Positions 21,264 to 27,200 of a stretch of 64,000 nucleotides of DNA are shown piece by piece (positions within the stretch are counted from its first letter, which is position 1; each line of letters begins with the position of its first letter). Made by a program: the position numbers. Origin of the DNA: Escherichia coli (lineage in GTDB: Bacteria > Pseudomonadota > Gammaproteobacteria > Enterobacterales > Enterobacteriaceae); the NCBI RefSeq assembly GCF_030013205.1, contig NZ_CP122648.1. One strand, written 5' to 3'.

Positions 21264-24200
21264 TGATAATCCTCCCGCCAGAAGAATAAAACATAGCCCG
21301 GTATACAAGTGTATACCGGGCTTTTTTGTGCACAGAAAACCCCCAGCTAGGCTGGGGGTTCCGGAAAGCTTTCAGCTTTGAGCCAGTTATTAAAACCCCT
21401 TTTGATTTGTTAAAACATCTTGCGGTCTGGCAACTGCAAGTGTCAAACAAGAAATCAAAAGGGGGTCCCAATGGGGAACGAAAAGAGCTTAGCGCACACC
21501 CGATGGAACTGTAAATATCACATGGTTTTTGCGCCAAAATACCGAAGACAGGTGTTCTACAGAGAGAAGCGTAGAGCAATAGGCAGTATTTTGAGAAAGC
21601 TGTGTGAGTGGAAAAGCGTACGGATTCTGGAAGCTGAATGCTGTGCAGATCATATCCATATGCTTGTGGAGATCCCGCCTAAAATGAGCGTATCCGGGTT
21701 TATGGGATATCTGAAAGGGAAAAGCAGTCTGATGCTTTACGAGCAGTTTGGTGATTTGAAATTCAAATACAGGAACAGGGAGTTCTGGTGCAGAGGGTAC
21801 TACGTCGATACAGTGGGTAAGAACACGGCGAAGATACAGGATTACATAAAGCACCAGCTTGAAGAGGATAAAATGGGAGAGCAGTTATCGATTCCCTATC
21901 CGGGCAGCCCGTTTACGGGCCGTAAGTAACGAAGTTGGATGCAAATGTCAGATCGTGTGCGCCTGTTAGGGCGCGGCTGGTAAGAGAGCCTTATAGGCGC
22001 ATTTGAAAAACCTCCGGCTATGCCGGAGGATATTTATTGATCAAAATTCCATTTTCACCGTGAATTGCACTTCACGCGGATCGCCAATCTGATTCCCCAG
22101 ATTATTTGTGGCGATGGAAGAGGTGTAATACGTTTTATCAAACAGGTTTTTGACGTTTAATTGCAGTGTGACCGGATACTGCAATTTCATTTTGTATGCG
22201 GCGAAGGCATCGGCAACGAAATAGCCTGGCAGATAATAGTCAGCCCCATTGGTTGCCGAACGACGGCTTACGCCATGTCCACCACCGCCAAACGTCAGTG
22301 TGTTATTGCCTGGCATGTTATGAATGTCATAGGTCAGGAATAGCGAACCGGTATGACGAGGAACATTCGGCAATGGTTTCCCTGCATAATCAGGATCCTC
22401 CAGAACCTTAGCATCGGTATAGTCGTAGCTGGCAATGATATTAATGTTTTCAGTTAATGCTCCCGCAAGGTCGACTTCTACCCCTCTTGAACGAACGCGG
22501 CCTGCCGTTTTGGCGATGGTTTCATCACCAATACTTTCGGTATACAACACGTTACGTTTATGGATATCAAACAGCGCAATATCTGCGGTTATACCATCGA
22601 ACAGCTCGAATTTTGCCCCGACTTCGTAAGCATTAGATGATTCCGGTGGAAGATCTCCGATGTAGCTGGCAATTGACGATTGCGGCATAAATGTTTGCGA
22701 ATAATTAGCAAATAAGGATACCGATGGCGTCAGTTTGTAGACTAACCCCAGTTTGGGCGTCCATTGTTCATCGCGGCTGTCAGTATTGACATTAAAAGGA
22801 CGGCCTTTACCCGCATACTGCGTGTAATACTGATAGCGGATCCCGGCGACGGCAATCCAGTTATCGGTCAGATAGAGCGCGTCCTGTGCATACGCTGAGT
22901 AGCTCTCCTGTTTGATCGTCTGATCACTGTCCGACGCCGAAACCGTTGTGCATTTGCTGGTATTGCCATAAACGGGGTTGTAGATATTGAAATCTTTAGC
23001 GTTTTTACAGCGAATCATATCTGTGCGCAGAAGATCATAATATTCATATGACACCCCACCCAGAATCTCATTATAGAACCCAGCAATATCAACATTCCCT
23101 TGCAGATCCGCACGAGTAGAATGCATACGCTGGGTAGATCCCTGAGTTGCATCAACACGCCGTGTCAGCGTTCCTGTCGTTGCATCATACGCGGTAACAC
23201 GAGCCTGATTGTCGCTGTATTTATCCTGGCTGTAGCTGTAATCAAAGCGCGCTGTCCACTGGCTATTGAGATGATATTCTGCGTTGAGTTGCGCCAGATC
23301 GGACTGACCATTTGTAATATTAAACGGTTCGTCAAAACGTATTTTTCGATCAACGTTTACGGGCTGTTTCGTCGTAAGGTCGAAAATCGTTCCACGATCG
23401 AACGGAGTTTTATAGTCCCGATGGGAATAGAGCATGGTTACTGTTGCATTATCACCAAACCAGGTGAGTGACGGGGCAATAAATGTACTGCGCTCTTTAC
23501 CGAAGTTTCGCCAGTAATCTTCATCCTGCACTTCCCCCGTCAGGCGGTATGCCAGCTGAGTGCCTTCAATGGGACCTGTGATATCAAGTTGCCCAGTGCC
23601 TCCGCCAAAACTGGAGGACGTGGCTGAGACAGAACCATGGAATGTTTTTTCCGGGCGCTTGGTCACGACGTTAATCAGTCCACCAGGATCGAGAATGCCA
23701 TACAGCGTGGAGGCCGGACCTTTTAGCACTTCCACACGTTCTGTGGCGGCGTTGAAACTGCGAGGAAGTACAGTTCGCAGGCCGTTGGTCATGATGGAGC
23801 CATCCCGGTTAGCACCAAACCCACGACGTACAAAGGCGTCCTGAGTTCCGCCTAATGTATTGGTCTGTACCACGTTACTGACGTTATAAAGCGCTTCATC
23901 CAGCGTCGTCGCATTCTGATTTTCCAGAACCTGATCGCTAACCGTATTGACCACCTGCGGGATATCCAGCATCGGCATATCGGTTAATGTCGCCGTGGAA
24001 GTGCTCAGAGGTTGATAACCATCGGTCGCCTCAGTTGCGGTATTTGCATCCGCTGTCACAGTGATTGTTTCGCCATCTTTGGTCGTTGCAGTGTCGGTTG
24101 CATGAATCATTGGTGCTGCAAAGAGCAGTGAAAAGAGCGCCCGACCTTTGATTCCTGAGAATGAAGGTGTGAACTTAGCCATTTAGTCTGTTATCCCAAA

Positions 24201-27200
24201 AACTCACGGATTGTCGTGAGTGAAAATTGTTTCTTGTTGCTCACTAAGCACTATCCGTTTGTTATTTCGCCATCGGATATGTAATTGAGAATCATTCAAT
24301 CATGCGGTAATGTAGTAGTAAATGAGAAATAACAAAAAATTGCTACATGTGTTTTTATGAGAGGTTAATGCAATTCAATTGATGGTAATTTATTAATATT
24401 TAATGGTTTTATTTTTATCTTTAAAAATATTTCACCTGTTATTTACCTTGTTTTTGTATGGCTTTTAACTTCTTGACTACTACATTTTGTGGCGTCAAAC
24501 TCTCAAAAGAGAATGAGTTTTATTTTTGTTTGTCTTTGATTAAGTTGGCGTACACGTGGCACATAACGCAAAAGGGCAGGGGCTGATCCTCGACAATGTT
24601 TCTGCCGGGTATCACACGAAAATCATTGTTGATGGTGTTTCTTTCTCCGTTCCCACAGAAAAAATGACCGTTCTGGTTGGGGCAAACGGCTGTGGAAAGT
24701 CGACGTTGCTCAGCACCATTGCACGTATCTTGCAACCTATGGGCGGCTCGATATTGCTGGATGGTAAAGCGATTCACGAGCAACCAACGAAAGCGTTATC
24801 CCGTAGACTTGGGATCTTGCCGCAGTCGCCATTATTGCCGGAGGGCTTAACCGTTTATGAACTGGTGTCGCGTGGGCGTTTTCCCTGGCAGAATTTCATT
24901 CGTCAATGGAGCGACGCCGACGAGCAGGCGGTAGAAGAGGCCCTGAAATTAACCGGTACGCAGGAGTTTGCACATTTACCTGTTGAAAAACTTTCTGGTG
25001 GGCAGCGCCAGCGTTGCTGGATTGCGATGGTGTTGGCGCAAAAGACGCCTTATATCCTGCTGGATGAACCCACAACCTGGCTTGATTTACGTTATCAGGT
25101 TGAAATTCTTGAGTTATTACATGATTTAACGCGTCATCACGGGCGTACAGTCGTCGTGGTGTTGCATGATCTGAATTTTGCCGTCAATTATGGTGATACG
25201 TTGATATTTTTACGCCAGGGGAAAGTGGTGCGTGTGTTGAATGAGGGGGAACATTGCACGCCTGAGCTGGTAAAAGCTGTCTTTGACGTTGATGTTCACG
25301 CATCAATAAATCCTCTGACGGGAAAGCCGTTCTTCATGCCGTTTCGTGGTGTAGAAAAAGTATGATGCGCACAGGGCTGGTTACTGTAATTTTCCTCGCC
25401 TTACTGCTGGTGGGATGCGTGGTATATCCAGGGATTGGTGCCCGATTTATTGCACCACAAACGGTGTTGCAGGCATTTCTTCATTTTGAACCGCAAAACT
25501 TCGATCACAACGTAATTGTAAGACTCCGTTTGCCGCGTTTAGCGGCAGCATTGCTTACCGGTGCTTCTCTTGGAGTTGCTGGTGCTTTGTTGCAGGCTGT
25601 CATTCGTAACCCATTGGGGGAGCCACATATTTTAGGCTTAAATGCCGGAGCCGCTCTTGCTGTCGTTGCTGCCAGTGCGCTTGGGCTGGCCTTTCCGGTT
25701 GGACGCCCACTGCTGGCATCTACGGGCGGCGCGTTATTGTTCCTGTTGATATTGCTGCTTTCCTCCGCAGGGCGTTCAGGGTTAACGCCAATGAAAGTTA
25801 CTTTATGCGGCGTGGCGCTATCGGCGTTCGTGTCCTCAATAACGGCTGCAATCCTGATTCTTGACGAACAAACACTGCTGGCGATGCGGACATGGCTAGC
25901 AGGTGATTTAGCGGGGCAGGATTGGGCGACGCTGGGTACGTCCGCCTGGTTTTCTCTGGGGGGGGTTGTGTTAGCCATTTACCTTGCGCCCTCTCTTAAC
26001 ATGTTGGCACTGGGTGATCGCATGGCGCAGGGGCTGGGCGTCTCGGTACTCCGCACGCGAACATTCACTCTGCTTGCGATCGCGTTGCTCTGTGGCGCAG
26101 CCGTATCGATTGCTGGCCCCATTGGTTTTGTCGGTCTGCTAGTACCGCAGATTGTCAGGCGTCTGGTATCAGCGGATCTGCGCGTTCTGCTCCCTCTTTC
26201 AGCTTGTGTCGGCGCGCTTTTGTTATTACTGGCAGATATTATTGCTCGGACGCTTTTCACGCCCCATGAGTTAGCGACCGGTGTCATGACGGCGTTAGTT
26301 GGTGCGCCTGTTTTTGTCATTATGGCGACGAGGATGTTCAAATGAGTCGGATAATGAACGTCGGGCTACGTCCACTACGTGTTGGTAAGTTTTCGACACT
26401 GGTACGCCCTAAAAATCTGGTGTTGCTTGGTGGGCTGTTTCTGTTTGCGGTTGGAATACTGATATTCGGTCTGATGCAGGGTTCTTTTTCTGTCCCGGCA
26501 TCGGAAGTAGGACGAGCGTTGTTTGCTCCAGAAAACGTAAGCACAGACGCACGTTATATTGTGCAGGATATTCGCTTGCCGAGAGTCATCATGGCATTGC
26601 TATGCGGAGCCATGTTAGGTATGGCGGGGGCCGCGATGCAATCCATTGCGCGTAACGGCCTTGCCGATCCTGGTTTAATCGGCGTCAAAGAAGGATGTAG
26701 CGTGGCGGTGCTGTGGCTGATTTTCCAGTTTCCAATGCTGGGAATGTTCTGGCGTCCAGTGGCTGGTCTTGCTGGTGGCTTGTTGGTGGCTTTAATCGTG
26801 ATTTTTTGTGCGCGCGATATTTCCCGCCCGCGATTTGTTCTGATTGGTATTGGTGTTTCCTGGTTTTTCGCCGCCGGTATCGGTGTATTTATGACCACTG
26901 CAGATGTTCGAGATGTACAAACTGCATTGATGTGGTTATCGGGAAGCCTGCATGCAGCTAACTGGATGTTAGTCGGTATTTCAGCCTGTTGGATGTTGCC
27001 AGCCGCTCTTTTATTGCTGTTCACCGCCAGGACGGCGGATATCGCTCTGCTTGGTCATCAGGTTGCAACCGGGTTAGGGGTGAATAGTTCTCGTCTGGCG
27101 TTGTTACGTGTCGCCGCACCAATAATCCTGACAGCCGTCTGCGTTTCGTGTGTTGGTAACATCGGTTTTGTCGGATTGATAGCACCCCATATATCACGTT

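Follow-up and report, generated by a model that had tools for sequence, protein, structure and literature searches.

The question raised by the locus described here is where two repressors bind between two divergent transcription units. The DNA analysed (the window) is a stretch of 64,000 nucleotides of an Escherichia coli chromosome (NCBI RefSeq assembly GCF_030013205.1, contig NZ_CP122648.1), in which a siderophore receptor gene on the minus strand and an ABC transporter operon on the plus strand are separated by a 373 bp spacer (24183–24555). The spacer is bordered by the receptor start codon (ATG, complement of 24180–24182) and by the GTG of the first operon gene at 24556. An earlier note made from the sequence had described it as an AT-rich divergent control region, which is borne out by its composition (30.3% G+C, compared with 50.7% window-wide). 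The locus is the E. coli fit system of the literature (fitA divergent from fitBCDE–fitR): gene order, products, primers and the location between parE and ygiN are those given by Ouyang & Isaacson (2006, 2008), who described fitA as the receptor, fitB as the ATPase, fitC and fitD as permeases, fitE as the binding protein and fitR as a regulator with helix–turn–helix (HTH) and SIS domains, fitA and fitB being served by a bidirectional promoter that lies between them. Twelve published fit primers were mapped, all to the expected genes and in the right order; eight had no mismatches. The fitA quantitative PCR primers mapped to 23362–23438 (no mismatches) and those of the promoter fragment used in electrophoretic mobility-shift assays (EMSA) to 24204–24225 and 24539–24562, so that the published probe corresponds to 24204–24562. 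Genes c3770–c3775 of strain CFT073 are collinear with the window locus, and the CFT073 spacer is also 373 bp long, with 23 substitutions and no insertions or deletions relative to the window.

The regulation itself has been reported. Derepression of fitA is 23-fold in a fur mutant, 2.2-fold when fitR is mutated and 52-fold in the double mutant; fitA–lacZ and fitA mRNA are both regulated by iron and Fur; lacZ fusions in both directions increase about threefold with dipyridyl, with fitR present or absent; the fitB promoter is likewise repressed by FitR; and purified FitR shifts the fitA–fitB promoter fragment in EMSA with specific competition (Ouyang & Isaacson, 2008). In CFT073, c3770–c3775, named there as the Fit pathway, are upregulated in fur mutants, and c3771–c3775 were identified as direct Fur targets (Banerjee et al., 2020; PMC7157518). 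The suggestion of dual control in the earlier note, through iron and an RpiR-type regulator, is therefore right, having been published as Fur/FitR repression in 2008 and as Fur chromatin immunoprecipitation sequencing (ChIP-seq) in 2020, and in that form it adds nothing to the two papers. The product of the single-mutant effects (23 × 2.2 = 51) is almost that of the double mutant, and this nearly multiplicative behaviour is, we infer, what independent, non-overlapping operators would produce. New here is a base-level map of two Fur boxes, two FitR boxes, the promoters and leader hairpins, all given as predictions, which provides testable coordinates for the question that the 2008 and 2020 authors left open, namely where Fur and FitR bind.

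The spacer is very probably the bidirectional fit promoter, made up of two σ70 promoters that are each repressed by Fur and by FitR at separate sites (Table 1). PfitA (TTTACT, 17 bp, TG-n-TTGAAT) and PfitB (TTGACT, 17 bp, CAAACT) would be placed back to back. Iron-loaded Fur would occupy box 1, over the −10 element and start of PfitA, and box 2, over the start of PfitB, and, under iron sufficiency, would block promoter escape or the formation of open complexes. FitR would bind the inverted 12-mers TGTAGTAGTAAA and TTGACTACTACA over the −35 elements, occluding RNA polymerase, and would be released by an effector, presumably a phosphosugar-like ligand. In this scheme repression, its independence, FitR binding and Fur occupancy are published; the exact Fur boxes, FitR boxes, promoter hexamers and start sites were inferred here.

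The promoters were derived by comparison. Representative genomes were scanned with FitR, which gave 75 loci; the receptor and ABC genes are divergent in 34 of these, and 31 distinct enterobacterial spacers were aligned. The flanking proteins are about 70–77% identical outside Escherichia, and the spacers consist of four invariant blocks in a variable background. The same order is found on both gene sides: TT(T/G)ACT, 17 bp, a −10-like hexamer and a Fur-like box. The only sequence common to both sides is ATGTAGTAGT(A/C)AA. Elsewhere the fitB −10 hexamer reads CATGAT, CAAGAT or CAAAAT. The predicted starts lie near 24286–24288 for PfitA and near 24508 for PfitB; box 1 would then span −12 to +7 of PfitA, over the −10 element and the start, and box 2 about +1 to +19 of PfitB, 28 nt before the fitB GTG.

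A second locus type was encountered in Pantoea, Serratia, Rahnella, Erwinia, Tatumella and others (L039, L043–L045, L048–L050, L054, L056, L057, L061, L063, L066–L074, L076, L082 and L089). Here a FitR orthologue and a receptor sharing 40–47% identity with FitA face each other, and no ABC genes lie between the two; some of these loci are on plasmids, one of which is labelled Pseudomonas. The receptor promoter of these receptor–fitR loci keeps the layout box 1–N12–TGTAGTAGT, with an offset of 24 bp and a single FitR box.

Fur occupancy was taken from CFT073, in which ChIP-seq summits were reported at 3607979 (c3775, height 2720) and 3607777 (c3774, height 2545), among the strongest of the genome (for comparison, fepA 3285, cirA 3050 and exbB 676; PMC7157518). 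Through the gap-free alignment of the two 373 bp spacers the summits were transferred to window positions 24293 and 24495, 202 bp apart. A symmetrised 19 bp position weight matrix for Fur was trained on 16 strong CFT073 summits, each represented by its best motif inside ±50 bp, with fit excluded and with the iroN summit, which lies inside a gene and has no motif, dropped from training. The training sites scored 9.2–23.4 bits (median 17.5) on leave-one-out, with summit-to-motif offsets of 2–34 bp. Dinucleotide-preserving, AT-matched shuffles of the spacer served as background for spacer scores.

The sequence TAATTGAGAATCATTCAATCA, named as a Fur site in the earlier note, was located exactly as claimed, at 24282–24302. 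It had been called a reasonable match to the Fur consensus, which is borne out only in part: box 1 agrees at 12 of 19 positions and scores 7.6 bits on the matrix, 29th among about 64,000 positions of the window and a chance-level score in AT-rich DNA. The matrix comparison with background had been proposed as one means of refuting the site. The score was indeed poor, yet a Fur ChIP-seq summit lies over the site, and rejection on the score would have been wrong because Fur occupies it. The summit at 24293 is 3 bp from the centre of the 19 bp box and 1 bp from that of the 21-mer, and box 1 is the best matrix match within ±35 bp of it. Positions 24282–24299 are invariant, and 24281 nearly so, in the 31 distinct orthologous spacers. 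As the match alone is no better than chance, the case for the site rests on the summit and the conservation; the score neither establishes nor refutes it, and what is supported is a box that Fur binds and that is conserved although it scores at chance level.

It was also considered that the 21-mer is conserved mainly as the fitA core promoter, with Fur acting through box 2 or the AT-rich centre and the resemblance to a Fur box incidental. The invariant TG-n-TTGAAT does lie in this block, always 17 bp from the −35 element, the block's 18–20 nt of invariance go beyond what is usual for degenerate Fur boxes, and its score is the chance level already given. We nevertheless regard this as unlikely: the fitA-side summit is a separate one, 1–3 bp from the box 1 centre and 202 bp from its neighbour, and fitA–lacZ and fitA mRNA are themselves regulated by iron and Fur. 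At the paralogous receptor–fitR loci, moreover, box 1 varies at a few positions that change from G to T, toward GATAAT, often approaching the Fur consensus (GTAATTGATAATCATTCAA, 10.4 bits; GCAATTGATAATCATTCCA, 12.1 bits). The two roles are in any case compatible; Fur boxes typically overlap −10 elements.

Box 2, which was overlooked in the earlier note together with the likely FitR operators, is the stronger of the two Fur boxes: it scores 14.9 bits, second in the window, with a shuffle P of 0.013, agrees with the consensus at 13 of 19 positions and is conserved as AAAGAGAATGAGnTTTATTT, with scores of 10–17 bits in other genera. The summit at 24495 is 23 bp from its centre, within the offsets of the training sites. 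Both boxes are kept in Escherichia, Enterobacter, Kosakonia, Citrobacter, Klebsiella, Raoultella, Kluyvera and Erwinia.

The centre of the spacer (24323–24472) carries 14 of the 23 differences from CFT073, and Fur-like matches there are weak in E. coli (24364–24403, at most 6 bits). In some genera a third Fur box of 14–20 bits was found about 170 bp upstream of fitB (loci L019, L055, L075 and L064; 17–20 bits in the first three). The fitB leader also differs: E. coli fitB has a GTG start and no clear Shine–Dalgarno sequence (24528–24558), and in other genera (loci L019–L087) fitB has an ATG, a GGAG motif and a G+C-rich leader of 50–90 nt. Part of the fitB 5′ untranslated region appears from the alignment to have been lost in the Escherichia lineage.

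The two 12-mers lying over the −35 hexamers are likely to be the FitR operators, as suggested by their sequence and by their co-occurrence with FitR in alpha- and gammaproteobacteria. Both contain the RpiR-family half-site TGTAGT/ACTACA, which was established as the half-site of Pseudomonas RccR by footprinting and EMSA, and the reverse complement of box B (TGTAGTAGTC) shares 10 identical nt with the left half of the aceA operator bound by RccR in P. aeruginosa. Both inverted 12-mers are exact in Xanthobacter and a related metagenome-assembled genome (MAG), where FitR is 53% identical; the spacers there (57% G+C) have no Fur box, with no Fur-matrix match and no GAGAATCATTC. In 1.1 Mb covering the 75 FitR loci there are 123 copies of the 9-mer TGTAGTAGT or its complement where 8.4 would be expected, a 15-fold excess; nearly all copies are at receptor/ABC promoters, a few are about 2.2 kb or more away, and two are in the 64 kb window. 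If the 12-mers are operators, single TGTAGTAGT elements over each −35 hexamer may be an arrangement not described for RpiR-family repressors. Among solved structures FitR is nearest to 8K3B (E = 4e-15), the deposited title of which is a MurR/RpiR family regulator, and to 8JU9 (E = 5e-15), an entry mentioned in the structure paper on P. aeruginosa RccR, where RccR is reported as a tetramer.

Additional FitR targets are hinted at by another TGTAGTAGT about 2.2 kb away in several second-type loci. The sequence GCTACA was found at 24342–24347, 25 nt beyond the TGTAGT of box A; (A/G)CTACA is kept in Escherichia, Enterobacter, Kosakonia and Citrobacter and is not kept in Kluyvera or Klebsiella, and it is a possible second FitR half-site.

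A different assignment would give 24280–24299 to the FitR operator, instead of or besides Fur, with TGTAAT (24280–24285) and TGTAGT (24311–24316) as direct repeats 31 bp apart. TGTAAT does resemble the half-site, box 1 is invariant, and the 24 bp offset between box 1 and TGTAGTAGT is fixed in every enterobacterial locus, the receptor–fitR loci included. This offset can be ascribed to the −35/−10 geometry, however; Xanthobacter and the related MAG keep FitR and the 12-mers with no counterpart of box 1, and the fitB promoter is repressed by FitR with no TGTAAT partner, all of which makes the assignment improbable. It is scarcely credible that the spacer is horizontally acquired AT-rich DNA silenced by nucleoid proteins, with chance motif matches: it has 30% G+C within an accessory island of about a third of E. 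coli genomes and its central 150 bp are poorly conserved, but the island genes have 48–54% G+C, four blocks are invariant though the flanking proteins are only about 70–77% identical, and specific Fur and FitR effects have been measured, which already contradicts it.

Several observations weigh against the assignment of Fur and FitR to separate sites at two promoters. Box 1 scores below all 16 leave-one-out training sites, and 47% of the shuffles reach 7.6 bits. The resolution of ChIP-seq (offsets of 2–34 bp) cannot by itself place Fur at box 1. The invariance of box 1 over 31 spacers exceeds the usual conservation of Fur boxes, and promoter or leader constraints may therefore account for part of it. 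The Fur matrix discriminates poorly: its top match in the window (GCTAATCATTAGCGTTATA, 4674–4692, in the ubiK–ribB divergent spacer) has 15.8 bits and no ChIP peak in CFT073, and a true site, the gel-shift-validated exbB site at 49157–49175 (exbB–metC spacer, 48717–49567), has only 9.9 bits. A consensus promoter and terminator scan of 24100–24650 called nothing, and the promoters rest on conservation. The FitR boxes lack a local pseudo-palindrome (3 or 16 nt spacer) and have no local partner common to both. The inverted boxes are 155–264 bp apart among the loci, with no constant helical phase.

No Fur peak is listed at ribB/yqiC in the CFT073 ChIP-seq despite the 15.8-bit match at 4674; this match is probably either spurious or bound only under certain conditions. 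Used alone, the matrix would mis-rank sites, since a bound one has 7.6 bits and an apparently unbound one 15.8 bits. The simple consensus count separates nothing from background: the boxes match at 12–13 of 19 positions, and about 100 window positions are equal or better. The supplements of a nine-strain Fur ChIP-exo paper contain no fit entries. DNA looping between the FitR boxes was considered; given the variable separation (155–264 bp, with no constant phase) and the single box of the receptor–fitR loci, looping is not proposed as necessary.

The fitA leader was examined separately. Its RNA of about 105 nt between the predicted start and the AUG folds better than shuffled sequences (z = −2.5), with two hairpins. 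In hairpin 1 the outer-stem pair 15–40 is C–G in 16, U–A in nine and U–G in three of the 28 leaders (RNAalifold), a compensatory pattern; its mean z is −1.7 over 29 leaders, and the inner stems differ between genera. Hairpin 2 is terminator-like, and 19 nt separate its end from the AUG. A perfect hairpin 17–23 nt before the AUG (shuffle P ≤ 0.05) was found in 22 of 29 distinct leaders (median P of 0.01 over all 29), and most of the other seven have imperfect or bulged stems in the same place. Its stems differ by lineage: CUCACG, CCGUGAAG, CCCCG, AUCUGUCC, CUGCC, CCCUGCC, CUGUG, UCACC and UCUCAUUC. The U-run (4–7 of 8) is present in Escherichia, Kluyvera, Kosakonia and Citrobacter and is poor in Klebsiella and Raoultella. 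When 28 leaders were aligned with MAFFT, hairpin 2 fell into shifting registers, so that RNAalifold found just the outer stem of hairpin 1, and a per-sequence test of hairpins against shuffles was used instead. Hairpin 2 was not called by the terminator scan (24100–24650), and scanning the spacer against Rfam yielded eukaryotic matches at chance level only, with no family for the leader. A three-codon open reading frame (ORF), ATGGCGAAATAA, was also noticed in the leader and was dropped as not conserved. Hairpin 2 may possibly act as a terminator or attenuator. We put forward only tentatively, as possible and rather doubtful, that the leader forms a third layer of control, by attenuation or by Fur-controlled release of a leader RNA, in addition to single-element FitR operators; if so, it would tune receptor synthesis separately from the ABC operon.

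The coordinates of the features are collected in Table 1. The island lies between parE and ygiN in the RefSeq context, in the E. coli chromosome; the G+C content of its genes is in the ordinary range. A 7.3 kb stretch of the window is 100% identical to porcine O139:H1 and enterotoxigenic E. coli (ETEC) strains. The spacer was found in 1870 of 5426 complete E. coli genomes, O157:H7 among them; the fit island is therefore carried by about a third of complete genomes, uropathogenic strains included, and in CFT073 fit ranks among the strongest targets of Fur. In the window strain an IS200C copy (21267–22040; tnpA 21471–21929, plus strand) separates the end of parE from the fitA stop, whereas the fit locus of CFT073 has only a 64 bp gap at this position, without IS200C.

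Table 1. Features of the fit locus, with window coordinates; boxes, promoter elements and hairpins are predictions.
Feature	Position	Strand	Basis
fitA, TonB-dependent siderophore receptor, 713 aa	22041–24182	−	ORF; NCBIfam TIGR01783, 371 bits; RefSeq annotation
fitA–fitB bidirectional control region, 373 bp	24183–24555		Sequence; published promoter/EMSA primers map here
fitA leader hairpin 2, ACUCACG/CGUGAGU (24202–24221), then U-run (24198–24201)	24198–24221	−	Folding
fitA leader hairpin 1, AUAUCCG...CGGAUA, variable inner stem	24252–24279	−	Folding, covariation
Invariant block 1, TGTAATTGAGAATCATTCAA, then conserved CA at 24301–24302	24280–24299		Alignment
Fur box 1, GTAATTGAGAATCATTCAA (21-mer of the earlier note, 24282–24302)	24281–24299		ChIP summit, conservation; predicted
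Predicted PfitA extended −10, TG-n-TTGAAT	24294–24302	−	Invariant ATTCAA and CA columns
Invariant block 2, TGTAGTAGTAAA	24311–24322		Alignment
FitR box A, TGTAGTAGTAAA; complement holds PfitA −35	24311–24322	−	Invariant in 31 spacers; predicted
Predicted PfitA −35, TTTACT	24317–24322	−	Fixed 17 bp spacing in all loci
Poorly conserved AT-rich centre, 22.7% G+C	24323–24472		Alignment, composition
Invariant block 3, TTGACTACTACA	24473–24484		Alignment
FitR box B, TTGACTACTACA, inverted copy of box A, includes PfitB −35	24473–24484	+	Inverted repeat, conservation; predicted
Predicted PfitB −35, TTGACT	24473–24478	+	Conservation
Predicted PfitB −10, CAAACT (CAnnnT conserved)	24496–24501	+	17 bp spacing constant in all genera
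Invariant block 4, AAAGAGAATGAGnTTTATTT, preceded by conserved CAnnnT	24505–24525		Alignment
Fur box 2, GAGAATGAGTTTTATTTTT	24509–24527		Matrix score 14.9 bits, conservation, nearby summit; predicted
fitBCDE–fitR operon	24556–29233	+	ORFs, profile matches, RefSeq; published fitB–fitR primers map in order
fitB, ABC ATPase	24556–25365	+
fitC/D, FecCD-type permeases	25362–26345 and 26354–27391	+
fitE, substrate-binding protein	27402–28349	+
FitR, MurR/RpiR-type repressor with SIS domain, last operon gene	28346–29233	+

The organization proposed for fit can be set beside several known systems. The spacers of fepA–fes, fepD–entS, fepB–entC and chuA–chuT are likewise AT-rich and divergent, with Fur boxes over core promoters, as predicted for fit, and strong ChIP signals, and chuA/chuT resembles fit in having a separate Fur summit for each direction. 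Compared with these classical divergent siderophore promoters, fit adds a second, locus-encoded repressor, and its box 1 is a poorer match (7.6 compared with 9–23 bits). FitR shares with RccR and HexR of Pseudomonas the HTH and SIS architecture and the role of a repressor that regulates its own gene, and the conserved fit 12-mers contain the TGTAGT/ACTACA of their operators; unlike them, FitR controls an iron-siderophore transporter. The RccR sites are pseudo-palindromes of 15 or 28 bp with 3 or 16 nt spacers, whereas the fit boxes are single, inverted and 155–264 bp apart. The closest parallel in logic is fecIR–fecABCDE, in which Fur is likewise combined with a substrate-specific, locus-encoded regulator and low iron plus a second signal are needed; Fec employs transmembrane signalling to an extracytoplasmic function (ECF) sigma factor and activation, and Fit a cytoplasmic RpiR/SIS repressor.

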